In this document: in pieces, positions 1,730 through 24,086 of the stretch
How positions within the stretch are numbered: the first letter of the stretch is position 1
Layout of the letters: the number at the start of each line of letters is the position of its first letter
From: Myxococcota bacterium
Lineage (GTDB): Bacteria > Myxococcota_A > UBA796 > UBA2385
DNA: 64,000 bases
Reading direction: 5' to 3'
Assembly: GCA_044344255.1 (NCBI GenBank)
Contig: JBIJDH010000003.1
Location: forward strand, 96,001 to 160,000
Position numbers and translations under genes: made by a program
The notes under the pieces: model-generated
The model's database searches: none
The model's input: the letters and a program-made list of their open reading frames with translations, nothing else
What the model was told of the DNA's origin: nothing

Positions 1730-3196
1730 TCAGTCCGCCGCGGGCATCCGCCCCGGGCCGAGGGTGGAGACGGGCGCCTTCGGGTGCACCTGGAAGCGGG
1801 TGTCCCGCTCGCGATAGATCACATTGTAGGCGCAGGATGGAATATTTTTACCGTCGGGCTCCCGGATCGAGACCGGACAGAGCTGGATGCGGTCGGTGTC
1901 GAAGCTCTCTTCGTCCATGTGGGCGTGGACATAGAGGGCGCGGGTGCGGCGCTCCGCCTCCCGCAAACGCTGCTCCGGGCTTCGGTTGGGATCGAAGGCG
2001 GCCTCGGCGAGCCCGCGCAGGGCGGTGAGCACGGCCACCTCGTCTTCACAGGGGAATTCCCCGGTCCACAGATCGTTGATCACGTCCTCCAGCACGCGCT
2101 CCATGCCGGGCCCGGGCTCGAGGTAGAGGGAGGTGCCGAGCATCTCTCGGAGGCGCTCGCGGGTCATGAAGCGGGGGAAGGGGAGCCAGCGCCCGTCCCC
2201 GAGGCGCAGCAGATAGGTGACCTGATAGCAGAGCGGATGGGCGGCGGGGGAGGGCACGAAGTCGGAGACGGCCACCGCGCCGGCCGTCTGTGCTTCGATG
2301 TCGCGGAGCACGGCGTCAGGGGTGTAACGGGCCCGGCGGTCAAAGGCGGCCCCGCTCTGGCCGGTGAAGGTCATCGGGTGCAGCTCGACCGAGCGGATGT
2401 GGTCGCGCGAGAGGGCGAGCGTGATGAAACGTCCGAGCTCGTGGTCGTTGACGCCCCGACAGAGCACGGGGAGCAGGGTGGTGTCGATGCCGTGCTCCTC
2501 GAGGAGGTCGAGGACGCGGAGCTTCCCCGCGGTGAAGGTGCCGCCGAGCAGGGCCTTGTTGGCGGTGTCCTCGAAGGAGTCAAAGGAGAGGATGACACGC
2601 GCGCCCACGGCCGCGAGGCGGGGGAGCAGCTCGGGCTCGCGGAGGAAGCGGAGCCCGTGGGTGGAGATCGTGATGCGGTGGATGCCCTCCCGGGCGCAGC
2701 GCTCGACGATGCGCAGGAAGTCGGGGTGGGAGGTGGGCTCGCCGCCGGTGAGGTTGATGATGCGCCGGTCGGGGGCGGCGCGGCGCAGGTGCCCGAGCAG
2801 GCTGTCGAGCTCGGCCTCGGAGAGGTGCCAGGCGCCATCGTTGCGGTTGTGGGTGTAGCAGATCGGACAGTCGAGGTTGCAGGCCGAGGTGATGGGCACG
2901 ATCGGGAGGAAGAGCCGCTGATGGTGCTGGCTGCAGGGCCCACAGTCGTACGGGCAGCCCTGGCTCGGCGGGTTCGCGTGGGCGGGCGGGGTGGCGCGGG
3001 CGGCCATCGCGAGGGTCGCGTGGTACCAGGCGGCGTCCTCGGCCACCACCGCGCCGCTCTCCCCATGGTCGGGACAGGCCTTTCGGAGCTCAATCCGCCC
3101 CTCCACCTCCCAGAGCGCGGCGGGCAGGCTCCGTTTGCAGGTGGGGCAGAGGCCGGTGGTCTGTCCGAGTCGCCGGGGGGGGGCCTGTTCAAGCAT
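1730..3196 (-). CDS. Radical SAM protein, Tes/GDGT-MAS (MJ0619)-like, paralog A
   Basis: N-terminal CPTC...CPDHG, GCPYDCGPCxxH, CNLDCPIC, LTGGEPT, HPLC, C-terminal CPVS...DGKNIPSCAYN. Confidence 0.85.
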   Translation of the reverse strand: MLEQAPPRRLGQTTGLCPTCKRSLPAALWEVEGRIELRKACPDHGESGAVVAEDAAWYHATLAMAARATPPAHANPPSQGCPYDCGPCSQHHQRLFLPIVPITSACNLDCPICYTHNRNDGAWHLSEAELDSLLGHLRRAAPDRRIINLTGGEPTSHPDFLRIVERCAREGIHRITISTHGLRFLREPELLPRLAAVGARVILSFDSFEDTANKALLGGTFTAGKLRVLDLLEEHGIDTTLLPVLCRGVNDHELGRFITLALSRDHIRSVELHPMTFTGQSGAAFDRRARYTPDAVLRDIEAQTAGAVAVSDFVPSPAAHPLCYQVTYLLRLGDGRWLPFPRFMTRERLREMLGTSLYLEPGPGMERVLEDVINDLWTGEFPCEDEVAVLTALRGLAEAAFDPNRSPEQRLREAERRTRALYVHAHMDEESFDTDRIQLCPVSIREPDGKNIPSCAYNVIYRERDTRFQVHPKAPVSTLGPGRMPAAD

Positions 3197-3773
3197 GGGT
3201 CGCCTGTCGCGGGGGCCCGTCCGGGCGGCCCCAGGCGCGGCTGCAGAGCCAGTCGCCCGCGGAGATCACCGCCGCGCAGAGGCCGAGGTTGAAGAGCACC
3301 GAGGCCCAGAGGGGCGTGCCCGCCGGCCAGACCGGATAGGGCCGAAAGGCGGTGTTCACGTTGAGCTCGGGGCGGGTGAGCAGGCGGGCGAGCGCCATCG
3401 CGCCGGCGGTGAGGGCGATAGAGGCGGGCACGAGGCCGCGCGGCACGCCGAAGCGCCGGGCATAGGTGAGGCCGATGGCCGCGGTCCCGAGGTGCAGCGC
3501 CGTCGAGCTCGGCGTGGTGGTGCCCGTGGTCACGACGTCGAGGATCCAAGAGGGGAAGCCGATGAGGCTGTTGTAGAGGCCGCCCACCACGACGAGCTGG
3601 GGAGAGACCGTGAGGAGCCCGAGGAGCTGCACCATCGCGGCGATGTGGCAGAAGTAGAGCATCTCGTCCAAGATCCCGAGCTCGACCTTCACCGCCGTGT
3701 GCCAGAGGAGGGCCATGGCCACGAGGCCTGCGAGCAGGCGCGCGCGGAGGGGGCTGGGTGTGGCGCGGGTCAG
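3189..3773 (-). CDS. Integral membrane protein, possibly YwaF/TMEM164-like
   Basis: About 6 hydrophobic segments, YFCH motif and a later LH. Start is either CTG 3773 (overlapping the upstream stop) or ATG 3716; the GC-rich ORF extension to 4238 is not credible. Confidence 0.6.
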   Translation of the reverse strand: MTRATPSPLRARLLAGLVAMALLWHTAVKVELGILDEMLYFCHIAAMVQLLGLLTVSPQLVVVGGLYNSLIGFPSWILDVVTTGTTTPSSTALHLGTAAIGLTYARRFGVPRGLVPASIALTAGAMALARLLTRPELNVNTAFRPYPVWPAGTPLWASVLFNLGLCAAVISAGDWLCSRAWGRPDGPPRQATHA

Positions 3774-4486
3774 AGGCCACCGGTCAGGTGGAGGGTGGCG
3801 CCGGTCATCCAGCCCGGCGACAGGGCGAGGCGGGACAGGGCGGGCACCACCTCGTCGAGGCGGCCGCGGCGGCCCAAGGCGCTGTGGGACAGATAGGCGG
3901 AGACGAGCCCGGGGTCGGCCGCCTCCGAGGCGCCCACCCCGAGATCGGCGATCAGCGCGTGGTTGCAGCAGATCCCGCGCCGGCCCCACTCCTTGGCCAC
4001 CGCCCGCACGAGGCCGGCCTGCGCGGCGTGGGCGGCGGCCATCGCCACCGGCACCCGCAGGGACTGAACGGCGGCGAGGCTGCCGACCATCACGACGCTC
4101 CCGCCGCCCGCCGCCGCCATTCGGGGGAGCAGGGCCCGCAGGAGCTGAAAGGGGGCGCGGGCGGAGAGGGCCATCGTCGCCTCCCAGTCGGCGTCGGTCG
4201 TCTCTTCGATGCCGCCGCGCGGCGCCTGTCCGGCGCACCAGACGATCGCGCGGGGCGCCTCGGCGTTGCGCTCGGCGAGGCGCACCACTTCGGCCCCCTG
4301 TCGAAGGTCGACCGCGAGGGCCTCCCAGCCCGTCTCTTCACGCAGCCGCCGCGCGGCCTCGGCCCCCTGAAAGTAGGTGAACCGTCCGGGCTGCCCCGCG
4401 GCCTGGAGCGCGCGCACCAGCGCCCCGCCGATCGTGCCGCTGCCGCCCACGACGAGGAGCGCTCCGCCCGGCGGTCTCTCGGTCAC
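3770..4486 (-). CDS. FabG-like SDR lacking the catalytic YxxxK
   Basis: GTG 4486 overlaps the upstream TGA; VGGSGTIG Rossmann motif; VPVAMAAAH where the paralogs read P(V/I)HYAxxK; C-terminal MTGATLHLTGG. Confidence 0.8.
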   Translation of the reverse strand: MTERPPGGALLVVGGSGTIGGALVRALQAAGQPGRFTYFQGAEAARRLREETGWEALAVDLRQGAEVVRLAERNAEAPRAIVWCAGQAPRGGIEETTDADWEATMALSARAPFQLLRALLPRMAAAGGGSVVMVGSLAAVQSLRVPVAMAAAHAAQAGLVRAVAKEWGRRGICCNHALIADLGVGASEAADPGLVSAYLSHSALGRRGRLDEVVPALSRLALSPGWMTGATLHLTGGL

Positions 4487-5616
4487 CTCAAACCTCCGGC
4501 GGCGGTCGGCGGGAGCCCGAGGTCGGCCCGGAGCGCCGCGTCTTGTTGGGGGCGCCAGATGTACTGGTCGAGCAGGTAGTGGTGCAGCACGAGCCCCCAG
4601 TACAGGCTGATCGCGAGGCCCTCCGCGGCGGCGGAGCCGGGGCCCCAGCCGGGGATCGCCCCCCGATAGGCGTTGGTCAGCAGGTAGGGGAGGCCGAGGG
4701 CGACCGCGATCAGCCAGGCCCAGGCGGGGCGGGCGGCGAGGCGAGCGCCGGAGGAGCCCTGTCCGTCGGGGTGCCGCTGGCGGCTGCTCCAGCCCACGAG
4801 GCCGATGTACTGGAGGCCGTGCGGCATCCCGTTGGTGATGGCGAGCGCGACGAAGGCGGCCTCGAGCGTGCGAGCGGCGGGCACGACGGGCTCCATCATC
4901 CCGATCGCGGCGAAGCCGAGGGTGAAGAGCGACAGCACCGGAAAGAGCAGGAAGAGGGCGGGGAGCGTGGGCTCCCCTCGCCGGGCGCGCAGGGCGGTGC
5001 GGGCGCCATAGGCGGTGATCGAGAGGACGATGAGGCCGAGCAGCCCCCCGAGGAGCGGGCGCTCGAGGCCCGAGGGCTCCGCCGAGAGGCCGAATTCCTG
5101 TCGGTTCAAGGGGTGCGCGAGGGTGAACCAGGCGAAGAGGGCCCAAAGGATGCCATAGAGGGCCGCGCGGTCTATCCCCCGCTCCCGCGGCCCCAGGCCT
5201 GCCTTTCGGGCATAGAGCGACCAGATGCCATAGTTCTGTCGGACCGCGTGGTGGTAGCCCCAGAGCGCGGTCAGCAGCAGGAAGAGGTCCATCGGCGCCG
5301 ACTGGCCGGTCCACTGGGCCGCGGCCCAACAGAGGGGCCCCGGCAGCCAGATGAGCAGGCTCCAGCGGAGGAGGGGCCCGCGCCGCCGCCGCTCGAGGGG
5401 GTCGAGGTAGGTGCGGAGCAGCGTGGCATAGAAGTGCGGCCCATCGACGAGCAGCAGCCAGGCGCAGAGGAGGGGGAGCCCGAGGCCCGGCGCGGCGAGC
5501 ACGGACAGGCCGAGGCCGAGCGAGAGGAGGGCGCTCGCGAAGAACCACAGCAGATCGGCCCGCCGGCTGATGATCCAGCCGCTCGCCGCGGGCCCCTCGA
5601 TCGCCGGGGCCGACAC
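4483..5616 (-). CDS. Polytopic membrane protein with His motifs (putative metal-dependent lipid-modifying enzyme)
   Basis: Multiple TM segments; DGPHFYAT, WGYHHAVRQNYG, HGLQY, HHYLLDQYIW. Confidence 0.65.
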   Translation of the reverse strand: MSAPAIEGPAASGWIISRRADLLWFFASALLSLGLGLSVLAAPGLGLPLLCAWLLLVDGPHFYATLLRTYLDPLERRRRGPLLRWSLLIWLPGPLCWAAAQWTGQSAPMDLFLLLTALWGYHHAVRQNYGIWSLYARKAGLGPRERGIDRAALYGILWALFAWFTLAHPLNRQEFGLSAEPSGLERPLLGGLLGLIVLSITAYGARTALRARRGEPTLPALFLLFPVLSLFTLGFAAIGMMEPVVPAARTLEAAFVALAITNGMPHGLQYIGLVGWSSRQRHPDGQGSSGARLAARPAWAWLIAVALGLPYLLTNAYRGAIPGWGPGSAAAEGLAISLYWGLVLHHYLLDQYIWRPQQDAALRADLGLPPTAAGGLR

Positions 5617-5617
5617 C

Positions 5618-6376
5618 TCAGAGCCCCCCGTCGAGCACGAGGCGGGCGCCGGTCATCAGCGTGTTCTCGCCCGACACCGCCCAGGCGGCCCACTCCGCCA
5701 CCTCCTCGAGCCCACCTAGGCGCCCGAGCGCGCTCTGTTCGCGGTAGTCCTGCAGCCGGTGGGCGGGGAGGCGCTGGGCGAGGCCCTCCTCGAGCAGCCC
5801 GGGCACGAGCAGGTTCACTTGCACGCCGTAGCGCCCCACCTCCCGCGCCGTCGCCTCGGTGAAGCCGCGCAGCGCCGCCTTGCTGGCCGCGTAGTGGACA
5901 GGGGCCGGCACCATCCGCTCGCCGGCGAAGGAGCCTACGTTGAGGATGTGCCCGCGGCGGGCGCGGATCATGTGCCGCAGCGCCGCCCGCGAGAAGAGGA
6001 AGGCCCCCTTCACGTTGACCGCCATCATGCGGTCCCAGTCGGCCTCCTCGAGCAGGGCGAGCGGCAGGAGCTGGTTGATGCCGGCGGCGTTGACGAGCAC
6101 GTCGAGGCCGCCCCAGTCGGCCGCGAGCGCGCGGACGGTGGCCTCGGCGTGCGCGGCGTCCTCCACCGAGCCCTGGAAGCTCTGAGGGTCGGCGCCCGCG
6201 GCCGTGAGGAGGCGCGTGGTCTCCAAGGCGTCCTCGGCGCGGCGGCTCCAGGTGAAGGCGACCCGGGCCCCCCGGCGCGCGAGGGCGAGGCCGATCGCCC
6301 GGCCGAGGTTGCGCGAGCCGCCCGTGATGAGGCAGCGGAGGCGCGCCGGGGCGGGAGCGGGGGCCGGCTCGCTCAA
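5618..6376 (-). CDS. 3-oxoacyl-ACP reductase (FabG-like SDR)
   Basis: TGGSRNLG, VNAAG, YAASK, DGG C-terminus. Confidence 0.9.
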   Translation of the reverse strand: MSEPAPAPAPARLRCLITGGSRNLGRAIGLALARRGARVAFTWSRRAEDALETTRLLTAAGADPQSFQGSVEDAAHAEATVRALAADWGGLDVLVNAAGINQLLPLALLEEADWDRMMAVNVKGAFLFSRAALRHMIRARRGHILNVGSFAGERMVPAPVHYAASKAALRGFTEATAREVGRYGVQVNLLVPGLLEEGLAQRLPAHRLQDYREQSALGRLGGLEEVAEWAAWAVSGENTLMTGARLVLDGGL

Positions 6377-7113
6377 ACGGCGCCGTCCACGACGACGGTG
6401 GCGCCGTTCATGTAGCTGTTGCGGGAGGAGACGAGGAAGGCGACCACCTCGGCCACCTCCTGGTGGGTGCCGAGGCGCCCGAGCGCGCAGTGGCGGATGA
6501 ACTCGTCGCGGCGGGCGGGCGGGAGGTTGGCGCTGACGCCGTCTTCGAGCACGCCGGGCGCGATGCAGTTGACCTGGATGCCGTAGCGGCCCACCTCCTT
6601 GGCCAGGGCCTCGGTGAAGCCCCGGAGGGCCGCCTTCGCGGTGGCGTAGTGGATCGGGGCCTGCATCATCTTGACGCCGGCGAGGCTCGAGACGTTGAGG
6701 ACGTGGCCGCGCCGCTGGCGCACCATCCCGCGCAGCACCGACTGGGTGGTGAGGAAGGCGCCCTTGACGTGGGTGTCCATCATTCGATCCCAGTCCTCCT
6801 CCTCCATCAGCGCGAGGGGCACGACCTGCCCGTGCCCGGCGTTGTTGACGAGGATGTCGATAGGCTGGCCGCCGTCGGCCTCGACGGCCTTACAGAGCGC
6901 CCGGGTGCCCTCGCGGTCGGTCACGCTCACCGGGAAGGCCCAGCCGCCCGGGCCGGCCTGGAGCTCGGCCAGCACGGCCTCGGCCTCGGGGCGGGCCTTC
7001 AGGTAGGTGATGGCCACCCGCGCCCCCTCGCGCGAGAGCGTGGTGGCGATGGCCCGCCCGAGCCCGCGGGAGCCGCCCGTGACCAGGGCCACCCGACCGT
7101 CGAGGAGGCCCAT
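6373..7113 (-). CDS. 3-oxoacyl-ACP reductase (FabG-like SDR)
   Basis: ATG 7113 in a TGATG overlap; TGGSRGLG, VNNAG, NVSS, YATAK. Confidence 0.92.
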   Translation of the reverse strand: MGLLDGRVALVTGGSRGLGRAIATTLSREGARVAITYLKARPEAEAVLAELQAGPGGWAFPVSVTDREGTRALCKAVEADGGQPIDILVNNAGHGQVVPLALMEEEDWDRMMDTHVKGAFLTTQSVLRGMVRQRRGHVLNVSSLAGVKMMQAPIHYATAKAALRGFTEALAKEVGRYGIQVNCIAPGVLEDGVSANLPPARRDEFIRHCALGRLGTHQEVAEVVAFLVSSRNSYMNGATVVVDGAV

Positions 7114-8774
7114 CAGAGGGTCTGTCCGGGGGGCTTGGCGGCGCCGCGGTGGAACATGTTGAAGCCACAGGCGGGCATCACGCGGCCGTCCTCCTGGGGG
7201 TAGTGGTGGCAACACTTCCGCAGCCGCTCGAGGTCAAAGTCGTGGCGGTCCATGTAGTGGTGCAAGAAGATAGACTTGGCCTGTCGCTCGCCGATGCGCG
7301 CCGCCTCTTTGTGGTCGAGCACGCGGTCGGGGAACATCACGGCGAGGGTGCGCTTCATCGCGGCGAGGATGAGCGGGGCGTCCTCGATCTCGTCCTGTCG
7401 TGACCAGACGTCGTACAGCGTGTCCTGGAGCGAGTCTTCGACGTCCTTCGTCGCTGGCAGGACGGCGCTCGACCGCAGCAGGTTCAAGTGGCGGTCAAAG
7501 TTGACGAAGCGCGGGAAGGGCACCGATCGGCCATCGTCCAGCTTCAGCAGATAGGTGAGCGACACACACTGCGGGTGCGAGCAGGGCAGGGGGAAGAAGT
7601 CGGAGCGGCGCACGAGGCCGCCCGTCTGCTCCTCGGCGCGGCGCACGAGGCCGGGGATCGTGACGCGGTCCATCGGATCGTGCACGAAGCCCGCGCCGCC
7701 CAGGCCCGTGTAAGCGGCGGGCTGGAAATTGAGCGAGATGATGGCGTCCGTCTCGAGGAAGAGGCGCACGACGTCGCCCACCTCCTCGTCGTTGACCCCG
7801 CGCGCCACCACGCAGATGAGCTGGGTGGGGAGGTCAAGCTCGCGGATCATCGTGAGGGCGGCGGCCTTCTCGCGGGTGAGGTCGCGCCCACGGATGCGGG
7901 TGTGGGTCTCGGCGGAGGTGCCGTCGAGCTGGAGGCCGACATAGACCCCGCGCCGCTTGAGCTCCAGGGCGAAGGCGCGGTCGCGGCCGAGGCGCAGGCC
8001 GTTCGTGATCAGCACCACGCGCGCGATCTCGGGGCGGTCGGCGATGTCGAGCAGCTCGAGGATGCGGGGGTGGCTCGAGGGCTCCCCGCCGGAGAGGGCG
8101 ATAGAGTCGAGGTAGCCCTCCTTGCGCACGAGCCCGTCGATGATGCGGGTGAAGGCCTCATTCGAGATGTGGGTGCTGTACTGATTGTTGACGATGCAGA
8201 TCGGGCACTCGAGGTTGCAGTGGTCGGTGACCTCGATGATCGGCAGGCAGGTGTGCTGCTCGTGGTCGTCACAGACGCCGCAGTCGGTGGGGCAGCCCGC
8301 CTCCACCTTGGCCGAGAACTCGAAGGGGCGGGTGCCGGAGCGGGCATAGGCGTAGGCGTTGACGTAGTAGTCGGCGTCCTCGCTCACCATGGCCTCGGAG
8401 GGCCCGCAGGTGGGGCAGTCCTTCTGGAAGTAGACCTTGCCCTCCCGCATCACGACCACCGCCTCGGTCAGCGCGAGGCAGGTGGGGCAGGTGCTGGTGG
8501 TGCGTTTCCAGGGGTGGTCTCCCGTGGGCTCGGCGGCGGCGCCGCGCCCCCGCGCGAGCCAGGCCTGGAGCCAGGCCTTGGCGTCGGGGTCGATCTGACG
8601 CTCGCTCTGCCCGCAGGCGGCGCAGAAGACGAGGTGCCAGACGGCGTGGTCGCGGATGACGACCCGGGCCTCCTTCACGCTGGCGCAGCCTGGGCAGACA
8701 TCCATGGCGTGGGCGAGGAAGGTGTGCGGGCGGTCCTCACGAACGGCGGGGGTGACGCAGCTTCCACAGTCCAT
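7113..8774 (-). CDS. Radical SAM protein, Tes/GDGT-MAS (MJ0619)-like, paralog B with duplicated N-terminal Cys ribbon
   Basis: CPGC...CAACG then CPTC...CPTCG; GCPTDCGVCxxH; CNLECPIC; LSGGEP; HPQC; RKCCHHYPQEDGRVMPACGFN. Confidence 0.88.
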   Translation of the reverse strand: MDCGSCVTPAVREDRPHTFLAHAMDVCPGCASVKEARVVIRDHAVWHLVFCAACGQSERQIDPDAKAWLQAWLARGRGAAAEPTGDHPWKRTTSTCPTCLALTEAVVVMREGKVYFQKDCPTCGPSEAMVSEDADYYVNAYAYARSGTRPFEFSAKVEAGCPTDCGVCDDHEQHTCLPIIEVTDHCNLECPICIVNNQYSTHISNEAFTRIIDGLVRKEGYLDSIALSGGEPSSHPRILELLDIADRPEIARVVLITNGLRLGRDRAFALELKRRGVYVGLQLDGTSAETHTRIRGRDLTREKAAALTMIRELDLPTQLICVVARGVNDEEVGDVVRLFLETDAIISLNFQPAAYTGLGGAGFVHDPMDRVTIPGLVRRAEEQTGGLVRRSDFFPLPCSHPQCVSLTYLLKLDDGRSVPFPRFVNFDRHLNLLRSSAVLPATKDVEDSLQDTLYDVWSRQDEIEDAPLILAAMKRTLAVMFPDRVLDHKEAARIGERQAKSIFLHHYMDRHDFDLERLRKCCHHYPQEDGRVMPACGFNMFHRGAAKPPGQTL

Positions 8775-8783
8775 TCGCGGCTC

Positions 8784-9794
8784 CTAGGCCCGCATCCGGG
8801 CGCCGAGGTCGATCCAGTCGCGCAAGCTACCACCTTCCCCGAGCGCCTGGGCCATGCCGCGGCAGAGGGTCCAGCAGGCCTGGCAGCCGTTGCCGGCGTC
8901 GGCCTCCCGCAGGCGGCGGAGCAGCTCGGGCAGCGGGGTGTCCCGGACGTTGCCGACGGAGCGGTCGATCTTCTCGATGCAGGGCGCCACGTTGCCGAGG
9001 TGGTCGAGGTTGAAGGCCTGGAGCCCCGCCCGACAGCGGGGGAGCGCGGCGCCGCCATCGAGGTAGTCCGGGAAGCCCTCGAGGTAGCTCCCGAAGCTCT
9101 GGAGGTGGCGGTGGCGGTCTCGCAGCGCGGGGAGGCCGGCCACGGCGGCGGCGTCGGGGCGGTGGGCGCCGGCCGGGCCGCGGCGGAAGCCCCCGTCGGA
9201 GAGCAGCGTGAGGTGGTGGCCGAGGCGGAGAGCGGCGCTGAGCTCCAACAGGGGCTCCAGGAGCGTCTGGTTCTCCCGCATCACCACCGTCATGAGGTGG
9301 ACCTGGGCGGCGCCCTTGGCGGAGGCCTCTCGCAGCGCGACGGCGGCGCATCGGGCCTGCTCGAAGGCCCCCGGCGTGCGGCGCATCTCATCATGGCGCT
9401 CGTCGGGAAAGTCGATGGAGACGCCGACCTGGTGGAGCCCCGCCCGGAAGAGGGCCCTCGCCTTGGTTTCGTCTACAAACCAGCCATTGGTATACAGGAT
9501 GGGCAGGTGCCCCTCGTCGGCGAAGATCCTCACGATGTCGATGAGATCGGGGCGGACCAGCGGCTCACCTCCCTCGATGGAGACCAGGAAGGCACCCTCT
9601 TTTGCCAGGGCTCGGGCGAGGCGCTCAAAATCTGCAAGCCGAAGCTCCTCCTTGGGGCTCGCGCCATTGGGCCAGAAGTCACAGAAGGGGCAGGCCATGT
9701 TGCACCGGTTCGTGACCTGCACCAGCACGCTGAAGGGGCGCACCCGGAGGATCCCGGCGGCGAAGTACAGCTCTCGAAGGGAGCGATTCGTCAC
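8784..9794 (-). CDS. Radical SAM protein with SPASM/twitch-type C-terminal domain
   Basis: CNMACPFC, EGGEP, YTNG; C-terminal CRAG...GNVAPC...GNV...CQACWTLC. Confidence 0.88.
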   Translation of the reverse strand: MTNRSLRELYFAAGILRVRPFSVLVQVTNRCNMACPFCDFWPNGASPKEELRLADFERLARALAKEGAFLVSIEGGEPLVRPDLIDIVRIFADEGHLPILYTNGWFVDETKARALFRAGLHQVGVSIDFPDERHDEMRRTPGAFEQARCAAVALREASAKGAAQVHLMTVVMRENQTLLEPLLELSAALRLGHHLTLLSDGGFRRGPAGAHRPDAAAVAGLPALRDRHRHLQSFGSYLEGFPDYLDGGAALPRCRAGLQAFNLDHLGNVAPCIEKIDRSVGNVRDTPLPELLRRLREADAGNGCQACWTLCRGMAQALGEGGSLRDWIDLGARMRA

Positions 9795-9831
9795 CGGTTG
9801 GGCTCCACTGAAGATCGGGCAGGTCTGTCGG

Positions 9832-13138: not shown

Positions 13139-13166
13139 TCGGAACTCGGGCTCGGGAGCGGCTGGG

Positions 13167-13805: not shown

Positions 13806-13814
13806 ACCGTCGCT

Positions 13815-14261: not shown

Positions 14262-14334
14262 CGGGCTCAGGGCTGCCCGCGGGAATGGTTGGACGGGCCG
14301 CCCCCGGACTCGACCGAGGCGGTGGAGTCAATCC

Positions 14335-15726: not shown

Positions 15727-18083
15727 GTCATTCGGCGCCGGAGGGTGGGGGCGAGCAGGAGGGGGAGCAGGCAGGTGCTGGCCAAGGGGAGCAGGCGCCA
15801 CTCGAGGGTGAGCTCGCCGGTGGGCTCCACCAGCACGACGTTGGCGAGGGCGAAGGAGATCACCGCCGACAGCATCCCGGGCGCGGCGCCATAGACCGTG
15901 GCCACCCAGAGGAGGGAGATCCCATAGAGGGCGAGGGCGGGCGCGCCCGTGACGGCCTTGAGGGTCGCGAGGACGCCGGTGGTCGCGTAGGGCACGATGA
16001 GGGCGACCATGAGGTCGCGCAGGCGGAGGGAGGGCGGCGGCGGGGCGGTCAGGGCCGCGGGCCCCGGAGAAGGGGCGCTCAGCGGGGCGCTCCGCGGGAC
16101 CTCGGCGCCGACCTCGGGGCCCACACGGAGGAGCCGCTCGGCTTGGACGAGCTGATCGGCCGTGCCGGCCAGGACGAGCAGCGTCCCTTGTCCGAGGGCC
16201 TGCTCGGGATCGGGGGTCGAGCGCACCACCTCCTGCTCGCTGGCGGCGATCACCAGCGCGCCGGTGCGGCGGCGGAGGTCGATGTCCCGGAGGCTGCGCC
16301 CGAGGCCCCAGTGACCCTCGCCGAGCTCGAGCACGCGGGTCGAGAAGGCGGTGAGCAGCGCCGTCGGCGAGACCTGGGGTGCCCCGTCAGGGCCGCGGGC
16401 GCTGCGGGACTCCTGGGCCGCCTGGGCGAGGACCTGTCCGTGGATCCCGGCGCTGTGCAGCACATGGAGGACGAGGTCGGCGGCCGCGGACTCGTCCTCG
16501 GCGATCACCACCACGCCGGGGAGTGCGACGAGACTGGCATCCCGCTCCATCCGCTGCACCCGGATCACCAGCGGGACGGTGGGGTGACGAGCGCGGAGGA
16601 GCGCGGCGATGTGCCCGGCGGCGGCGGGGTCCGAGAGCATTAGCACCACCTGCCGGGCCCCCCCGACGTAGGCGACGTGCTCGAGGGCCTCGGGGCTCGT
16701 GAGGTCGGCGTAGGCGGCGTCCCAGCCGCGGTCCCGGGCGGCGGACACCTCGACCAGATCGAGGTCGACGGCGAGGAAGGGCACGCCCGCGGCCTCGAGC
16801 GCCCGCCCCAGGGTGCGCCCGCCGTGCCCGAGGCCGCCGATGACGACGTGGCCCGTCCGAACCGGGTGTGGCGCGTGGTCGGAGGGGGTGTCGGTGTTGC
16901 CGAGCCTCCGCTCGAGCGGGCGGAGGAGGGCCACGCCCGCGGCGACGCGGGGGCTCTGCGCCACCAGGATGGGCGAGACGATCATCGTGATCACGCTGGC
17001 GGCGAGGAAGGCGGAGGCGGCCCCTTCGCTGATCAGGCCTTGATCTTCGGCGGCGCGGATGAGCACGAAGGAGAACTCCCCGATCTGGGCGAGGCTGAGG
17101 CCCGTCAGCAGCGCCACCCGCAGGGGGAAGCGCATCAGCAGCACGCCGAGGGCGGCCAGCGCCAGCTTGCCCACGACCAGCATCAGCACGAGGGCGCCGA
17201 TGAGCACGGGCTCTTCGACCAGGATGCGAGGGTCGAGGAGCATGCCGATCGAGACGAAGAAGACGCTGGCCATGGCGTCGCGGAAGGGGGAGACCTGGGC
17301 GGCGATGGTGTGGGCGAACTCGGTCTCGGCGATGATCACCCCCGCCAGAAAGGCGCCGAGGGCGATCGAGAGCCCGATGCTGGCGGTGGCCCACGAGACG
17401 GCCGCGGCGATCAGCAGCGCGCTGAGGATGAAGACCTCGCGGCTGTTGGCCCGGGCGACGCCGCCGAGGAGGGCGGGCACCACCTTGCCGGCCACCACGA
17501 GGCCGCCCACGACCACCATGACCGCCTGCCCCATGGTCTCGGCGAAGGTCCAGATGGTGCCGCCCGCTCCGGCGAGCATCGGGATCGCGAGCATCATCGG
17601 GACGATGCAGAGGTCCTGGAAGATCAGGACCCCGACCACGAGCTTGCCGTGGGGGGCGTTGACCTCACCGCGCTCCGAGAGGGACTGGAGCACGATGGCC
17701 GTGCTCGACAGGGCGGCGACGAAGCCCCAGGCCACGCCCTCCGCTGGCGCCACGCCGAAGGCCACCGCGCCGAGCACCCCGGCGAGCACGGTCAGGCCGA
17801 CCTGCAGCGTCCCGCCCACGGCTACGAAGCGCGCGATCGGGCGGAGCCGGTCGAGCGAGAACTCGAGGCCGATGGTGAAGAGCAGCAGCGCGACCCCGAG
17901 CTCGGCGATCACCTCGACGGTGTGCAGATCGGAGACGAGCCCGAGCGCGTGGGGGCCGATGAGGAGGCCGGCCACGAGGAAGCCAACGATGGGGGGCAGC
18001 CCGATCCGGCGCAGCCCCACCACCGCGAGGACGCCGCTCAGGAAGACGACGACGAGGTCGCGGAGCAGGTCCTGCAGGTTCAT
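15723..18083 (-). CDS. CPA2/KefC-like cation:proton antiporter with TrkA-N, TrkA-C and an extra C-terminal membrane domain
   Basis: LLFTIGLEFS, LSSTAIV, FQD, LAQIGEFSF; GLGHGG in the KTN domain; RCK-C LRRRTGALVIA; DUF4118-like hydrophobic tail. Confidence 0.9.
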   Translation of the reverse strand: MNLQDLLRDLVVVFLSGVLAVVGLRRIGLPPIVGFLVAGLLIGPHALGLVSDLHTVEVIAELGVALLLFTIGLEFSLDRLRPIARFVAVGGTLQVGLTVLAGVLGAVAFGVAPAEGVAWGFVAALSSTAIVLQSLSERGEVNAPHGKLVVGVLIFQDLCIVPMMLAIPMLAGAGGTIWTFAETMGQAVMVVVGGLVVAGKVVPALLGGVARANSREVFILSALLIAAAVSWATASIGLSIALGAFLAGVIIAETEFAHTIAAQVSPFRDAMASVFFVSIGMLLDPRILVEEPVLIGALVLMLVVGKLALAALGVLLMRFPLRVALLTGLSLAQIGEFSFVLIRAAEDQGLISEGAASAFLAASVITMIVSPILVAQSPRVAAGVALLRPLERRLGNTDTPSDHAPHPVRTGHVVIGGLGHGGRTLGRALEAAGVPFLAVDLDLVEVSAARDRGWDAAYADLTSPEALEHVAYVGGARQVVLMLSDPAAAGHIAALLRARHPTVPLVIRVQRMERDASLVALPGVVVIAEDESAAADLVLHVLHSAGIHGQVLAQAAQESRSARGPDGAPQVSPTALLTAFSTRVLELGEGHWGLGRSLRDIDLRRRTGALVIAASEQEVVRSTPDPEQALGQGTLLVLAGTADQLVQAERLLRVGPEVGAEVPRSAPLSAPSPGPAALTAPPPPSLRLRDLMVALIVPYATTGVLATLKAVTGAPALALYGISLLWVATVYGAAPGMLSAVISFALANVVLVEPTGELTLEWRLLPLASTCLLPLLLAPTLRRRMT

Positions 18084-18096
18084 GGGGCCCCGGGGC

Positions 18097-18531
18097 TCAG
18101 GTCTGTTTGGCCAGCACGAGGTTCACGAAGGTCTCGACCGAGAAGAGGCCGAGGATCTGGCTCGAGCGGAGGCCGGGGGCGATCCGCTCAGCGGCTTCGG
18201 GCATCAGCGTGCGGAGGCGCACGAGGCCAGCCTCCGAGATGATGCCGTTCGGCGCGAATTCCTCGTCGCTCATGTCCCCGCGGGCCGCCCGCTCCATCTC
18301 GCCGCGGGTGATCTCGATGTCCCAGGCCTGCTCCAGCTTGAAGACCACCTCGAGGAACTCGAGGGACTGGAGGCCGGCCTCCATCAGGTTGGTCTCGGGC
18401 GCGATGCCCGCGGGATCGGCGGCGATCACCTCGGCGACCGCTTCGATGACGGTGTGGCGCACCTCCTCGCGGCTCGGAGCCGCGCGCGGCGGGGAGGACG
18501 GGAGGGGCGGGGTCTCACCAAGGTCGGTCAC
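18097..18531 (-). CDS. Enlarged acyl carrier protein
   Basis: Acidic; IAPETNLMEAGLQSLEFLEVVFKLEQAWDIEI (phosphopantetheine Ser in QSL); long insertion before the last helix. Confidence 0.85.
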   Translation of the reverse strand: MTDLGETPPLPSSPPRAAPSREEVRHTVIEAVAEVIAADPAGIAPETNLMEAGLQSLEFLEVVFKLEQAWDIEITRGEMERAARGDMSDEEFAPNGIISEAGLVRLRTLMPEAAERIAPGLRSSQILGLFSVETFVNLVLAKQT

Positions 18532-18594: not shown

Positions 18595-19254
18595 TCAGTC
18601 CCCTGCGTCGAGCCAGGTCACGACCTGCTCGAGGGGCCGCCGCGGCTTCGGGCTCGGCTGCTCCGCGGGCCAGCCGAGGGCGACGGCGCCGAGCATCCGG
18701 AAGGGGGCGCGGATCCCCACGAGCGCCTCCACACCCGCCCGCGCCACCATCGGCCCGGCCATCCAGGTGGCGCCGAGGCCCTCGGCCGCGGCCTGGTTGA
18801 GGAGGTTCATCGTCGCGGCGGCGGCGGCGCACAGCTCGGACTGCATGGCGGCGGAGGTGTCGTAAGCGGAGGGGTCACCGCCGCCGGAGCGCACGAGGGC
18901 GGCGATGAGGTCGGTGTGGCTGCGGTAGCTCGGCACCACGATGACGGGCGCGGCGGCGAGGGGCTCGTGGAAGAAGTCGCCGTAGCGCCCGAAGTCGTCC
19001 TTGTGGTGGCCCCGCTCGATGATCGCACCCATCTCGGCCACCCGCGCGTGTACGACCTCGACCACCCGGGCGCGGACCGAGGCCGCCGTGACCACCGCGA
19101 AGCGCCAGGGCTGGCGGTTGGTGGGGGAGGGCGCGCTCACGGCCGCCGCGAAGAGGCGCTCCAGCACCGCCCGCTCGACGGGATCGGGGCGGAAGGCCCG
19201 CACGCTCTGGCGGGCCTGGAGGGCGGCGAGGAAGGTCGGGCCGTCGAGGGGCAT
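18595..19254 (-). CDS. Nitroreductase-family flavoprotein
   Basis: RQSVRAF, APSPTNRQPWRF, NLLNQAAAEGLGATW. Confidence 0.92.
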   Translation of the reverse strand: MPLDGPTFLAALQARQSVRAFRPDPVERAVLERLFAAAVSAPSPTNRQPWRFAVVTAASVRARVVEVVHARVAEMGAIIERGHHKDDFGRYGDFFHEPLAAAPVIVVPSYRSHTDLIAALVRSGGGDPSAYDTSAAMQSELCAAAAATMNLLNQAAAEGLGATWMAGPMVARAGVEALVGIRAPFRMLGAVALGWPAEQPSPKPRRPLEQVVTWLDAGD

Positions 19255-19284: not shown

Positions 19285-20211
19285 TCAGGTGGGGCCGAGC
19301 CGAAGCCACCCCGCCTGGTCGGGTGAGCCGCCGGACCGGCCCTCGATCGGCCCTCCGTGGCCCCTCCCGAGCAGCTCGGCCATGATCACGAGCTGCACGA
19401 GGCCGGTCGCCGCGCCGAGCTCCCCGGTCGCGCCGTCGAGGTCGATCCTGCGGCCGGGCCCGAGCCCCTCCAGCGTGGATGCGGCGGGGACGGTGGCGGC
19501 GGTGGTGTGGGCGGTCCTCACCGTCAGGTTGCCCAGCCCCCGGTCCCGCGCGAGGAGCACGGCGGCCGCGGCCTCTCCGGGGGCCCGGCCCTCGGCCCAC
19601 CGCCCCGAGGCGTAGCCCTCGACGAGCAATTCGGGCTCGATCAGGCTGTCGGCGCCGATCACGAGGGCGGCATCGAGCGCGTCGGCGCGGAGGGCGCGGA
19701 GGGCGGCCTCGAGGGCCATCAGCCCGCCGATCGCCCCGGCGCAGGTGACGCCGTCTCCCCGGGCCTCGAGCTCGATGCTGATCAGGGCGTGGGCGTTGTT
19801 CGAGAGGTGGCGGAGCATCCAGTAGGGGTGGACTTGTTTGAGGCCGCGGGCCCAGGCGCCTTCGCCGTCGGGGCGCTGGTGGACCATCGCGGGCAGCAGC
19901 TCGTTCCAGAGGGCGCGCAGCCCGCCGATGCCCATGAAGACGCCGAGGCGGTCGCGGTCACCGGCCCAGCCTGCGGCCGCCTCTCGGGCGACCTCGAGGG
20001 CGAAGAGGCCCACCCGTCCGAGGAAGCGGGCCTGGGGACAGGGGAGGGGATCGCCGGGCACCCGCGCGGACAGGGCCGCCGGGTAGACCGGGGGGAGCAG
20101 GCTGTGCGGGCCGATGGCGCGCTCTCCCCGCAGCAGGCGGTCGAGCACGGCGGCGGGCCGGTCGCCGAGCGGGGTGCGCAGCGCGGTGGAGAGGACGCCG
20201 ATCCGGCTCAT
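19285..20211 (-). CDS. Ketosynthase-like subunit (chain-length-factor-like, non-catalytic)
   Basis: KS N-terminal fold (RLGVFMGIG, LSNN, GEAAAAVLL); no ACA-type catalytic Cys motif and no HGT/GH histidines. Confidence 0.75.
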   Translation of the reverse strand: MSRIGVLSTALRTPLGDRPAAVLDRLLRGERAIGPHSLLPPVYPAALSARVPGDPLPCPQARFLGRVGLFALEVAREAAAGWAGDRDRLGVFMGIGGLRALWNELLPAMVHQRPDGEGAWARGLKQVHPYWMLRHLSNNAHALISIELEARGDGVTCAGAIGGLMALEAALRALRADALDAALVIGADSLIEPELLVEGYASGRWAEGRAPGEAAAAVLLARDRGLGNLTVRTAHTTAATVPAASTLEGLGPGRRIDLDGATGELGAATGLVQLVIMAELLGRGHGGPIEGRSGGSPDQAGWLRLGPT

Positions 20212-21485
20212 GGACGGGGCTCCCGGGCCGAGCCGAAGAGGAGGGTCACGTTCTGCCCGCCGAAGCCGAAGGAGTTGCTCAGCACGACCGCGGGGGAGGC
20301 GAGGTGGGGGCGCTCCCCGAGGACGGCGATGGGGAGGTCGGGATCGGACACCTCGTGGCCGGCGGTCCCCGGCACGACCCCGCGGAGCAGGGGCAGCAGG
20401 CAGGCGGCGGCCTCGATCGCCCCCGCCGCGGCCATGCCGTGCCCGAGGGCGCCCTTGATCGAGCCCGTGAGCGGCGCCTCGGGGCCGAAGAGGTCAAAGA
20501 TGGCGCGGGCTTCGGCGAGATCGTTGCTCGGCGTGCCGGTGCCGTGGGCGTTGATGTAGCCCACGTCCGCCGGTGCCAGCCTGGCGCGGCGGAGGGCCAG
20601 GGACATCGCTTGGCGGGCCTGCTGACCGTCCTCCCGCGGCGCAGTGGGGCGGTAGCCGTCCTGGGTGGAGGCCTCCCCGAGCAGGCGGCCGAGGATCGGG
20701 GCGCCCCGGGCGCGGGCGTGGGACTCCGCCTCGACGATGAAGAAGGCGGCGCCCTCTCCGACGACGATGCCGTCCCGACGCGGGTCGAAGGGGCGACAGG
20801 CGTCAAGCTCGGCGCGGGGGCTCGGCACGCCGAGGCGGGCGAGGCCGGCGAGGCCGAGCGGGTTCAACATGCTGTCGGCGCCGCCGCAGAGCACGGCGGT
20901 GGCCTCGCCGCGGCGAATCCAAGCGGCCGCCGTGGCCAGCGCGAGGCCCCCGGCGGCGCAGGCCGAGGCGTTGACCAGCGGCGCCCCGACGATCGGGAGC
21001 ATGGCCCGGAGCAGGGTGGCCGTGCGATCGACGGGCGAGCGGTACCGACAGGCCGGGCCCTGGTCCTGCGCCCAGTCGAGGGCCTCCACGCCGGCCTGAT
21101 CCCTGTGGAACATCGGGACGAAGTCTTCGAGGAAGGCGCACTCCAGGCCGAGGGCCACCGAGAGGCGGAGGCCGGTGGGCTGGCCGGCCATGGTCCAGGC
21201 CTCGTGGGCGGCGAGCAGCCCCCAGGCGATCTTCCGATCGCGCAGCGAACCGTCGGTGGCGAGGGCCTCGAGGGCCGCCTGCTGCCCGTAGGCCGCGCGC
21301 AGGGCCTCGAGCGGGCGGACCGCGTCCGGCACCGCCCCGCCGACCTGGACGGGGAAGCCCTCGGTCGGGAAGTGGTGGAGGGGGCGGATCGCGCGGTCGC
21401 CGGCGCTCAGCCCGGACCAGAGGGCCTCGACGCCCTGCCCGAAGGCGGTGACCGCGCCGACGCCGGTGAGGACGGGCGCGCTCAT
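20208..21485 (-). CDS. Beta-ketoacyl-ACP synthase (FabF-like)
   Basis: ATG 21485; ASACAAG, RPFDPRRDG, NAHGTGT, KGALGHGMAAAG, SNSFGFGG. Confidence 0.93.
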   Translation of the reverse strand: MSAPVLTGVGAVTAFGQGVEALWSGLSAGDRAIRPLHHFPTEGFPVQVGGAVPDAVRPLEALRAAYGQQAALEALATDGSLRDRKIAWGLLAAHEAWTMAGQPTGLRLSVALGLECAFLEDFVPMFHRDQAGVEALDWAQDQGPACRYRSPVDRTATLLRAMLPIVGAPLVNASACAAGGLALATAAAWIRRGEATAVLCGGADSMLNPLGLAGLARLGVPSPRAELDACRPFDPRRDGIVVGEGAAFFIVEAESHARARGAPILGRLLGEASTQDGYRPTAPREDGQQARQAMSLALRRARLAPADVGYINAHGTGTPSNDLAEARAIFDLFGPEAPLTGSIKGALGHGMAAAGAIEAAACLLPLLRGVVPGTAGHEVSDPDLPIAVLGERPHLASPAVVLSNSFGFGGQNVTLLFGSAREPRP

Positions 21486-22396
21486 CGGGACCCGCCTGGC
21501 GCGAAGGTGAAGGTGACCCGGCTCCGCAGGCCGTCGGCGTCGCGGTGGAGGGCCTCGGCGGCGTCGCGGTCGAGGGCGCCCCGCTCGAGGGTCCGGAGCC
21601 AGGCGAGCGCGGGGCCGGCGGCGAGGGCCTCGAAGGGCTCGTCGGCGAAGGGCTCGTCGGCGGAGGGCTCGTCGGCGGAGGGCTCGTCGATGTCCTCGGC
21701 TCGCTCGATCCAGCCGAGGGGCGCCTGGGCCTCCCGCGCCAGCACGAAGACGGCCGCGCCCTCGCCGAGCGGCCGGCGGGTGCCCAGGCGGCGGAGCTCG
21801 CTCGCGGTGACGGGGTGGAGGGCGGAGTCGGCCCCCCCCGCGATGACGTAGGGGGCGTCGGTCTCCTGGAGGGCCCACATCGCCTCCCGCAGGGCCAGGG
21901 TGGTGCCGACCCCACGGGAGAAGACAGCGCCGTTCGGGCCGCCGAGGCCCTCGAGGATCGCCGGGTGAGCGAGGGTGAAGTTGTTCATGAGCTGGAAGGC
22001 GAGGGTCGGGTTGCAGGCGCCCACGCCGCGGCGAGCGAAGGCCGCCCCCGACCACTGGCCGTCTTGGAGGGCCGGTCGGAGCAGGCGGAGCACATCCTCC
22101 ATCGAGCCGGCGCTGGCGCCGACCCCGAGGAAGATGCCGATCTGGAGTGGATCGACGGGCGCGGCGCCGACGGCGGCTTCGGCTGCGCGGAGGGCGAAGA
22201 GCGCGTCGTGGACCGCGCCCGAGGCGAGCAGCGCCCCCCGAGACATCATCCGCGCGCCGCGACGGAGGGGCGGCCAGGGCTCGTCGGCGGACACCCGCCA
22301 CTCCGGCCCGGCGGGCCCCGGGGTCGGCTGGGGGACCCGCGCTCCGACGGCGACGATCGCGGCCCGAGGCGGGCCGGGGCGGCGGGGCTCACCCAT
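21482..22396 (-). CDS. Ketosynthase-like subunit (chain-length-factor-like, non-catalytic)
   Basis: IGIFLGVG, LMNN, GGADS, GEGAAVFVL; no catalytic Cys/His; contains an EPSAD tandem repeat. Confidence 0.75.
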   Translation of the reverse strand: MGEPRRPGPPRAAIVAVGARVPQPTPGPAGPEWRVSADEPWPPLRRGARMMSRGALLASGAVHDALFALRAAEAAVGAAPVDPLQIGIFLGVGASAGSMEDVLRLLRPALQDGQWSGAAFARRGVGACNPTLAFQLMNNFTLAHPAILEGLGGPNGAVFSRGVGTTLALREAMWALQETDAPYVIAGGADSALHPVTASELRRLGTRRPLGEGAAVFVLAREAQAPLGWIERAEDIDEPSADEPSADEPFADEPFEALAAGPALAWLRTLERGALDRDAAEALHRDADGLRSRVTFTFAPGGSR

Positions 22397-23582
22397 GGCC
22401 GATCACGACGCTCGCGTTGGCGCCCCCGAAGGCGAAGGCGTTGATGAGGGCCGAGCGCAGCGGCCCCACCTGGGCGGCCCCCAGGACGAGCGGCAGCGGG
22501 ACGTCGGGGTGGAGGAGGCCGGCGATGGGGGGCGCGCGACCGTCGCGGAGGGCCTCGGCGGCGGCGCAGAGGCCGACGGCGCCCGCGCCGGCGATCCAGT
22601 GGCCGAGGGCCCCCTTGACGGCGCTCACCCAGCCCGCTCCGTCGCCCAGCACCCGGAGGAGGGCCGCCGCCTCGACCGCGTCGTTGAGGGGGGTCGAGGT
22701 CCCGTGTGCCTGGACGTGATCGACCGCGCGCCGGCCCGCCTGCTCGAGGGCCCGCCGCATGGCCCGCTCGGCGCCCGCGCCCGCGGGATCGGGCATCGTG
22801 AGGTGGTGGCCGTCGACGGTGCGGGCGCAACCTTCGAGCCGGAGGGGGCCCGGCCGACTGGAGAGCCAGAGCAGCGCGGCCCCCTCCCCGACGACGAAGC
22901 CGTCTCGCTGAGCGTCGAAGGGGCGGCTGCGGCCGCGGGCGCTGAGCGCCCCGAGCTTGCCGAAGCCCGCCATCATCAAGGGGTCGACGTCGGCGCCCAC
23001 CCCGCCGGCCAGGGCCTCGTCGCACTCCCCTTGGGCGATGGCCCGCGCGGCCTCGATCACCGCGGCGAGGCCCGAGGCACAGGCGAGCGACAGCGTCGCG
23101 GTGGGGCCGGTGGCGCCGATCGCGCGCGCGAGCGCGGCGGCGACGGCGGCGGGGGAGAGCAGGGCGGGGCTCAGCCGCGGCGCGAGGGGGCCGGCCCCCG
23201 CGGCGAAGGCGGCGTGGTCGAAGGCCTTGCCGCCCCCCGCGGCGCGCGCGACCTCGACGAGGGTGTGGAAGCGCCCGCGGCCCGACTCCGCGCCGACGAA
23301 GACCCCGGTGGAGGGCCCGCCGACGGGGAGGCCCGCGCAGGCCTCGAGATCGGCGAGGGCGGCGGCCATCAGCGGCAGCCTGCGGTCCTCGGCGTCGAGG
23401 TGGGACAGGACCGGCGCGCCCACCGTACACGGGAAGCCGGTGACGTCGAAGTGCCCGATGGGGCCGACGGCGCTGTCCCCCGCGCAGAGCCGCGGCCAGC
23501 TGCTCGCCCAGGTCGGCCCGAGGGGGGTGGTCGCCCCCCAGCCGTGGATCCACACGGGGCGACCCTGGGTCTTCGGGTTCAA
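22389..23582 (-). CDS. Beta-ketoacyl-ACP synthase (FabF-like)
   Basis: LACASG, RPFDAQRDG, QAHGTST, KGALGHWIAGAG, NAFAFGG. Confidence 0.93.
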   Translation of the reverse strand: MNPKTQGRPVWIHGWGATTPLGPTWASSWPRLCAGDSAVGPIGHFDVTGFPCTVGAPVLSHLDAEDRRLPLMAAALADLEACAGLPVGGPSTGVFVGAESGRGRFHTLVEVARAAGGGKAFDHAAFAAGAGPLAPRLSPALLSPAAVAAALARAIGATGPTATLSLACASGLAAVIEAARAIAQGECDEALAGGVGADVDPLMMAGFGKLGALSARGRSRPFDAQRDGFVVGEGAALLWLSSRPGPLRLEGCARTVDGHHLTMPDPAGAGAERAMRRALEQAGRRAVDHVQAHGTSTPLNDAVEAAALLRVLGDGAGWVSAVKGALGHWIAGAGAVGLCAAAEALRDGRAPPIAGLLHPDVPLPLVLGAAQVGPLRSALINAFAFGGANASVVIGHG

Positions 23583-23618
23583 GCCGCCTCCACCCGCTTC
23601 AGGTTCGTTCAGGCCCGC

Positions 23619-24086
23619 TCAGGGCGCCTCGGTGGAGCCGTAGAGCCAGAGGTTCAGGATCTCCTGTCGTCGCTCGATCACGCGCGGGTGGCTGACCCGG
23701 GCGAAGGCGAAGGTGAGCTCCGCCTCGGCCACGGTCTCCCCGTCTCGACGAGCGATCCCGCGCACGCGCCCGCCGTCCTCGTTGGCGTGGACGCCCAGGG
23801 CCTCGAGCTCGAGCCGGTCACCGGGGCGGACGATCTGCCGGAAGCGAGCCTTGTCCGCCGAGAGTAGCAGAGCGTGGAGGTCTGTCCGACCGCGCAGCCG
23901 CATCGTCGCCTCCAGCAGGACCCCGCCGAGCTGCGCCAACCCCTCGAGGAGCAGCGCCCCCGGGAAGACCGGGTGGCCTGGGAAGTGGTCGGCGAGGAAG
24001 TCTTCGGAGAGTGTGCAGCACTTGATCGCCGTCGCGCGGGCGGGAGGCTCGAGCAGCGTGATGCGATCGATGAGGAAGTAGCGCAT
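23619..24086 (-). CDS. FabZ-like 3-hydroxyacyl-ACP dehydratase (hot-dog fold)
   Basis: LIDRI, HFPGHPVFPGALLLEGLAQ, ARFRQIVRPGD. Confidence 0.92.
   Translation of the reverse strand: MRYFLIDRITLLEPPARATAIKCCTLSEDFLADHFPGHPVFPGALLLEGLAQLGGVLLEATMRLRGRTDLHALLLSADKARFRQIVRPGDRLELEALGVHANEDGGRVRGIARRDGETVAEAELTFAFARVSHPRVIERRQEILNLWLYGSTEAP

Follow-up and report, generated by a model that had tools for sequence, protein, structure and literature searches.

A conserved ketosynthase and acyl carrier protein gene cluster with radical SAM enzymes of the Tes superfamily in a Myxococcota bacterium

The window analysed here (64,000 nucleotides of contig JBIJDH010000003.1, positions 96,001 to 160,000; all coordinates below are those of the window unless another contig is named) comes from a Myxococcota genome (GCA_044344255.1; 8.18 Mb, 83 contigs, 95% complete). 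It carried genes for ketosynthases (KS), chain-length-factor-like (CLF-like) partners and an acyl carrier protein (ACP), together with two radical S-adenosylmethionine (SAM) enzymes, here called TesA and TesB, which belong to the superfamily of the archaeal tetraether lipid synthase GDGT-MAS (Tes, MJ0619). The pathway is real, conserved and undescribed, and consists of known parts in a new combination. It is best explained as a modular type II polyketide synthase (PKS)/fatty acid synthase (FAS)-like pathway whose product is a specialised lipid or a metabolite resembling one. Radical C-C ring closure on the pathway's own ACP-made chain, followed by amination, is the chemistry that we favour, at slightly less than even confidence, with substrate and product likewise predicted from the encoded proteins.

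All 16 genes named in a first-pass annotation were open frames, running on the minus strand from 24086 to 1730, and their Pfam/NCBIfam matches agreed with the families assigned to them. Nine of the 15 gene junctions within the two halves of the cluster overlapped (by 1-8 bases), in keeping with the description of the genes as mostly overlapping, and the other six were gaps of 1-63 bp. The two halves were set 4.5 kb apart by an interrupting stretch (9795..14334).

Results

Conservation of the cluster in related genomes

GTDB genomes were scanned with TesA as the query, and the best 80 of 100 confirmed stretches were kept, corresponding to 79 loci (57-71% identity) from Myxococcota, which gave most of the related records, and from Massilia and other Pseudomonadota. 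The presence of genes around TesA was scored by tblastn (E 1e-6), and 46 loci, those whose upstream sequence reached 9 kb or more, were considered “long loci”. A genome-wide check covered 43 of the 79 source genomes, picked for longer contigs and including one unpublished genome (G625, one row); as many of these genomes were related to one another or incomplete, their counts cannot be treated as independent.

KS1, CLF1, KS2 and CLF2 lay beside the TesA orthologue in 44 of the 46 long loci, the nitroreductase in 42, and the ACP, which often fell beyond the 10-kb edge of the locus, in 33. Of the 67 loci whose flank was long enough, 62 had FabZ, mostly in divergent orientation to TesA; FabG1 was present in 77 of the 79 loci. 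Across the 43 genomes, orthologues of TesB (58-64% identity) were found in 39, a third Tes-like paralogue, TesC (43-50% identity to TesB), in 27, the SPASM-like radical SAM enzyme in 28, the class III aminotransferases AT3a and AT3b in 27 and 38 respectively, and the four-His membrane protein in 27. AT3a adjoined the SPASM-like gene in 26 of the 27 genomes carrying it, so the 4.5-kb stretch splits a normal pair in this genome. TesC, a FabG, AT3b and the pseudo-FabG were grouped in several relatives' loci.

Gene order varied widely among relatives with intact clusters, and the synteny across Myxococcota and Pseudomonadota is more than chance. The two halves, which the first-pass annotation had joined into one locus, are one pathway; its proposal of a dedicated KS/CLF-ACP pathway with radical SAM enzymes and class III aminotransferases was also borne out, these genes travelling together in relatives. 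The cluster is incomplete at the main locus: the third paralogue and the second aminotransferase sit on contig C2 (G000:C2:130592-134362; L080:8592-12363), in a detached module composed of TesC, a short-chain dehydrogenase/reductase (SDR; FabG4) and AT3b, which in relatives is part of the cluster; the three genes occupy 130592-134176 of that contig. In 43 of the 46 long loci an SDR separates CLF2 from the nitroreductase; it had no copy in this genome's cluster. The KefB-like CPA2 antiporter (15723..18083, minus strand), initially counted as a member, is a local insert outside the conserved cluster: it was found in none of the 79 loci, and the ACP abuts AT3a in the close relative L020.

The cluster is rare in the phylum: a TesA orthologue was present in 2 of 301 sampled genomes, and some Tes-like gene in 29 of them. 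Of 301 genomes of the phylum to which Massilia belongs, the Massilia genome alone had the cluster's ACP type. A plasmid search returned only 9 distant matches, all below 30% identity, and a search with 5600-9800 of the window listed no RNA record holding it.

Fold, metal ligands and phylogenetic position of TesA and TesB

The model of TesA (7113..8774, minus strand; pLDDT 93.3) superposed on the four-domain fold of GDGT-MAS (PDB 7TOM) with Z 44.7 and a root mean square deviation of 2.7 over 440 aligned residues, the C-terminal helical region included; the next fold scored Z 20.0. TesB (1730..3196, minus strand) was assigned to the same fold from its sequence (E 7.6e-54 against the PDB sequence of GDGT-MAS), and GDGT-MAS was the only close PDB match of both proteins.

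Metal-site residues were read from HMMER alignments using the residue numbers of PMC9433317 (cited, like the other papers here, for individual passages). In these alignments both enzymes keep the ligands for the rubredoxin-like site, the N-terminal cluster and the radical cluster, as well as three Cys of the C-terminal cluster; the fourth rubredoxin ligand is a Cys in TesA. The three C-terminal Cys, together with a His, were kept in 78 of 78 TesA and 13 of 13 TesB orthologues, a conservation which suggests that these Cys are cluster ligands. This His occupies the position of GDGT-MAS Met439 in TesA (His505), TesB (His424) and TesC, and was present in 24 of 25 cluster-type rows; the residue was Met in 9 of 11 Tes rows and in 14 of 14 TrsS rows. 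Tyr459 was kept in TesA only (Tyr525), its counterpart in TesB being Ile. TesA also showed an extra invariant Cys398 and, at its N-terminus, a second rubredoxin-like domain with four Cys, in tandem with the first (hhalign 99.4%, control 0.3%).

The initial description of both enzymes as Tes-like was right as to superfamily, fold and ligands, but not as to the Tes family proper. TesA and TesB reached 266.9 and 232.6 bits against the Tes family model NF045702 (cut-off 450), which no protein match in the whole genome passed, and 267.9 and 245.9 bits against the TrsS model NF045646 (cut-off 490). For the trees, 94 near-full-length proteins were kept from 150 listed by a library search with TesB and classed by NCBIfam; the trees were unrooted, and the Tes reference rows were unnamed proteins passing the family cut-off. 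In a 131-row FastTree the cluster-type rows, including two L103 rows without a KS seen nearby, stood behind one branch (support 99), apart from Tes and TrsS. In a 29-row IQ-TREE subset, the approximately unbiased (AU) test rejected a group of Tes plus cluster enzymes (p=0.0057). Judged by these alignments and trees, the cluster enzymes are members of the Tes superfamily that form a distinct, His-ligated branch outside the Tes family proper.

Twelve stand-alone Tes-like proteins of the phylum (L109-L120) offered a contrast to the cluster enzymes: 11 had lost two or more of the three C-terminal Cys, and no KS or ACP match was found near any of the 12. The genome studied here harboured a fourth Tes-like gene (G000:C58:98353-99219). 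A sister arrangement with three Tes-like genes was observed in 4 sampled genomes, with FAS genes alongside in 2 of the 3 loci inspected; the sister clusters L101 and L105 carried other tandem Tes-fold paralogues next to FabG, FabZ, and KS or aminotransferase genes, and sister locus L106 had an additional B12 radical SAM gene.

Assembly-line, tailoring and membrane protein genes

All the genes described in this section lie on the minus strand. The Cys-His-His triad was kept in both KS1 (22389..23582; Cys168, His293, His328) and KS2 (20208..21485; Cys176, His314, His349), the Cys being present in every orthologue of KS1 (58 of 58) and of KS2 (56 of 56). Their CLF-like, non-catalytic partners matched PF00109 in the N-domain only: partner 1 (21482..22396) weakly and without an active-site Cys, and partner 2 (19285..20211) with a sole nearby Cys that is not conserved. 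The FabZ-like dehydratase (23619..24086; PF07977) had His34 and Glu48, the His and Glu being found in 66 of 66 orthologues. The ACP (18097..18531; PF00550) had a Ser56 invariant in 31 of 31 rows and an insert of about 45 residues after helix II. The idea that this insert evolved for the Tes-fold enzymes was dropped, since the long-insert ACP had full-length matches in 32 of 40 close relatives, several of them without a Tes-like match. A complex prediction for the ACP with TesA (score 0.01) was counted neither for nor against an interaction.

FabG-like SDR 1 (FabG1, 6373..7113, overlapping the TesA stop codon) and SDR 2 (5618..6376) had an intact YxxxK. The third SDR (pseudo-FabG, 3770..4486) had no catalytic Tyr/Lys pair, here or in relatives (F/YxxxQ). 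By sequence, then, the set comprises what defines a type II PKS/FAS-like system (active KS, non-catalytic partner, ACP serine, dehydratase and ketoreductase), and the assembly line looks active. Gene overlap and analogy point to KS-CLF heterodimers and to chain extension on the cluster's ACP. The nitroreductase-family flavoprotein (18595..19254; PF00881) may serve in ene-reduction, oxidation or electron supply. Among the genes of the cluster and its recurrent neighbours, none was matched to a malonyl transferase (FabD), FabH, a ligase, a thioesterase or a glycerol-phosphate acyltransferase.

The catalytic Lys was kept in both aminotransferases, AT3a (14335..15726; 16 of 16) and AT3b. The best PDB match of AT3a was 4PPM (E 6.5e-84), the prodigiosin aminotransferase PigE, whose C-terminal transaminase half it resembles; it scored 409 bits against NF053554 (cut-off 850). 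The N-terminal, reductase-like half of PigE is missing from AT3a, and a separate homologue of that half was found on contig C36 of the same genome. There (L094:9006-12759), a second set of KS, CLF-like and long-insert ACP genes was followed by the PigE-N/acyl-ACP-reductase-like gene; this set possibly belongs to a common fatty-aldehyde pathway.

The enzyme normally coupled to AT3a (8784..9794), originally annotated as a SPASM radical SAM protein, is a radical SAM enzyme with five extra C-terminal Cys; the SPASM part of the name was less secure, the SPASM/twitch match being partial (21.3 bits, cut-off 21.5). The multi-helix membrane protein (4483..5616) had four invariant His and no known family; its model (pLDDT 91.2) gave no Foldseek match at E 0.001 and no clear fold match, its best hits (Z 7.6) being scattered rhodopsin-like bundles. 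A likeness to His-type membrane dioxygenases was not confirmed. The small membrane protein (3189..3773) showed a conserved Cys/Ser-His pair (His in 10 of 10); a weak TMEM164 lead had an Atlas score (0.78) under the 0.9 bar.

Interrupting stretch and neighbouring genes

The interrupting stretch contained a 5'-truncated metallophosphoesterase gene (13815-14261; first hundred residues gone), an IS3-type orfA/orfB remnant (13180-13805, plus strand) with no catalytic domain matched and a seven-A run near 13453 that may be a slippage site, an adenylate cyclase/DUF5939 gene (10853-12727, minus strand), and hypothetical frames. The metallophosphoesterase had a match in 2 of the 79 loci; the adenylate cyclase, which was rejected as a part of the cluster, and the hypothetical frames had none. 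A paralogue of the adenylate cyclase/DUF5939 gene, 40% identical, lies elsewhere in the window (53557-55356, minus strand).

The flanking genes were rejected likewise (0 of 79 loci): a tetratricopeptide repeat (TPR) plus aspartyl-protease gene (596-1561, minus strand) downstream of TesB, not conserved with the cluster, and a co-oriented 415-aa frame without family (24104-25351, minus strand) located 17 bp upstream of FabZ. Beyond lie an EamA-SPFH fusion frame and, after it, an SPFH/Band 7 gene (25141-28706, plus strand), then more such frames. Most recurrent unassigned frames around the relatives' clusters were antisense shadows and were discarded. A fatty-acid-hydroxylase/alkylglycerol-monooxygenase-like gene was present in 7 of the 79 loci (L067, L012, L002, L009, L005, L016 and L079), and an LPG-synthase-like gene in 3 of the 79 plus Massilia (L008, L010, L052 and L083), hinting from their sequences at a membrane-bound end product in some carriers.

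Discussion

Comparison with known systems

In the GDGT-MAS reaction a hydrogen is removed from an inert carbon, the radical is kept as a C-S bond on the C-terminal cluster of the enzyme, and the C-C bond is formed next (PMC13459092, PMC9433317). The enzyme couples sp3 carbons; Met439 and Tyr459 are fully conserved in 1000 archaeal homologues, and M439A and Y459 variants stay active (PMC9433317). The cluster enzymes share with GDGT-MAS (PDB 7TOL, 7TOM) the fold, the rubredoxin-like site, the N-terminal cluster motif, the radical SAM motif and the three C-terminal Cys. They differ in sequence (about 31% identity, below the family cut-off, on a separate branch), in the His at Met439, in the second rubredoxin-like domain of TesA, and in coming as a set of two or three paralogues linked to KS/CLF-ACP genes. 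TrsS radical SAM (seleno)proteins share the architecture as well, and the cluster enzymes score against them equal to or above their Tes scores; these proteins differ in the Met ligand, and the cluster enzymes remain under the TrsS cut-off and on their own branch.

Two non-aromatic type II PKS systems, the highly reducing type and the cispentacin (Amc) system, share several features with the genes described here: a KS with a non-catalytic partner, an ACP, a hot-dog dehydratase, a class III aminotransferase and the lack of a dedicated malonyl transferase (PMC10698177). In cispentacin biosynthesis the aminotransferase aminates an ACP-bound cyclic acyl group, and FAS enzymes are borrowed in trans (PMC10698177). 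The present cluster differs in having two KS/CLF pairs and three or four radical SAM enzymes, in its scores (KS2 211 bits vs. the AmcF cut-off of 325; FabZ 41 vs. the AmcE cut-off of 140), and in that no AmcH-type starter ligase or thioesterase was matched among its genes. The clusters proposed for anammox ladderanes are alike in their FAS-II-like genes, in an unusual ACP and in their radical SAM enzymes, which are uncharacterised and were proposed as ring closers (PMC13459092). The ladderane parallel drawn in the first-pass annotation failed at the level of marker genes: the B12-dependent radical SAM and phytoene-dehydrogenase-like enzymes used by those clusters (PMC13459092) were matched neither in the 16 genes nor in their recurrent neighbours. 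Outside subscription journals and MIBiG, which the comparison did not cover, no published description of a KS/CLF cluster with Tes-fold enzymes was found, nor any match to a characterised cluster.

Proposed pathway and alternative explanations

C-C bond formation on the pathway's own chain is favoured because the cluster enzymes keep the C-terminal site of GDGT-MAS and travel with chain-building genes. With FabD, FabH and a ligase missing from the cluster, priming and malonylation would be provided by the primary fatty-acid enzymes. Each Tes-fold paralogue would then take a hydrogen from an unactivated carbon of that chain, park the radical on the 3-Cys/His C-terminal cluster, by analogy with GDGT-MAS, and form one C-C bond; two or three paralogues would give two or three positioned bonds, most simply intra-chain rings. 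Amine formation from a carbonyl may fall to the SDR/pseudo-SDR pairs and the class III aminotransferases, the amination step having a precedent in cispentacin biosynthesis; transfer or finishing of the product may be the part of the membrane proteins. A more specific version, which we hold more tentatively, is that the His-ligated branch constitutes a position-specific sp3-sp3 coupling set acting on one ACP-made chain and leading to a polycyclic (ladderane-like or bridged) or tail-welded amino-lipid. Several points weigh against ring closure: the Tes fold does not fix the chemistry, TrsS sharing that fold and sitting closer to Tes than the cluster enzymes do; the long-insert ACP occurs in relatives without a Tes-like match; the tight pairing of the radical SAM genes with SDR or aminotransferase genes fits oxidation chemistry equally well; and sequence cannot separate a ring from an inter-chain cross-link.

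The pairing just mentioned (TesA-FabG1 in 77 of 79 loci, AT3a with the SPASM-like gene in 26 of 27 genomes, and the TesC group in several loci), together with the decarboxylase BlsE as the best, albeit weak, PDB match of the SPASM-like enzyme, argues for a radical oxidation in which the Tes-fold enzymes would desaturate, dehydrogenate or decarboxylate the ACP-made chain without a new C-C bond, the C-terminal cluster acting as an electron sink and carbonyls being fed to the neighbouring SDR and aminotransferase modules. We consider this unlikely: the full four-site architecture of GDGT-MAS is kept, and the sole characterised member of that architecture forms C-C bonds. Slightly less probable again is sulfur insertion, in which the C-S intermediate would be the end point and the C-terminal cluster the sulfur donor, giving thioether, thia-ring or thiol lipids. 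The switch of the labile ligand from Met to His, the extra Cys398 of TesA, and the sulfur-lipid adduct yielded by GDGT-MAS, along with the unusual ligands noted in S-C forming enzymes (PMC9433317), are consistent with it; no sulfur-supply or cluster-repair gene, however, was found among the recurrent neighbours, and the Met ligand is dispensable in GDGT-MAS (PMC9433317), so its replacement need not alter the chemistry.

A true Tes-like function, welding two membrane lipids tail-to-tail into bacterial membrane-spanning or macrocyclic lipids, is the weakest of these alternatives, and quite improbable, because the cluster has no glycerol-phosphate acyltransferase. The shared fold including the C-terminal helical region, the Tyr459 kept in TesA, and the hydroxylase-like and LPG-synthase-like neighbours (7 and 3 of 79 loci) speak for it, as does the proposal that bacterial Tes homologues make branched glycerol dialkyl glycerol tetraethers (GDGTs) (PMC8941075), which was unconfirmed as of a 2025 paper (PMC11868695); the presence of homologues has been taken to suggest that membrane-spanning lipids are made, with no proof by experiment (PMC8941075, PMC11868695). 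The scores of 267 and 233 bits vs. 450 and the rejected Tes-plus-cluster clade argue the other way. One Tes suffices in archaea (PMC8941075), vs. two or three diverged paralogues here, and none of the diabolic-acid producers tested had a detected Tes homologue, which was seen in only 3 of 14 acidobacterial producers (PMC13159169). Tes is only remotely related to Mss, the bacterial membrane-spanning lipid synthase, two of which are confirmed (PMC13159169). The membrane-spanning or macrocyclic lipid idea, raised in the initial annotation, found no direct support, given the missing acyltransferase and the rarity of the cluster (2 of 301). It is very improbable that decay or rearrangement has left this genome's copy useless, with the family active elsewhere: the operon is broken by a stretch with an insertion sequence (IS) remnant and a truncated gene, the TesC module lies on another contig, and the SDR typical of long loci is missing, but 16 of 16 genes are open with catalytic residues intact, and gene order varies widely among intact relatives.

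Biological significance

The cluster ties one branch of the bacterial Tes homologues to a defined substrate-making machinery. It is shared with soil and water bacteria that can be cultured, among them Polyangium fumosum DSM 14668 and, with a compact cluster, Massilia atriviolacea SOD and M. frigida CCM 8695 (the names Massilia and Sorangium appear as tree labels in the supplements of PMC8941075), so knockouts and lipidomics can test the pathway directly. If a sp3-sp3 coupling set is indeed present in culturable strains, such strains would let its chemistry be investigated beyond archaea and anammox bacteria, and enzymes joining unactivated carbons within a chain would offer a new means of building rings and a model of ladderane-type chemistry. 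If the chemistry is another, a Tes-like match in a bacterial genome should not be taken to mark a branched-GDGT producer.

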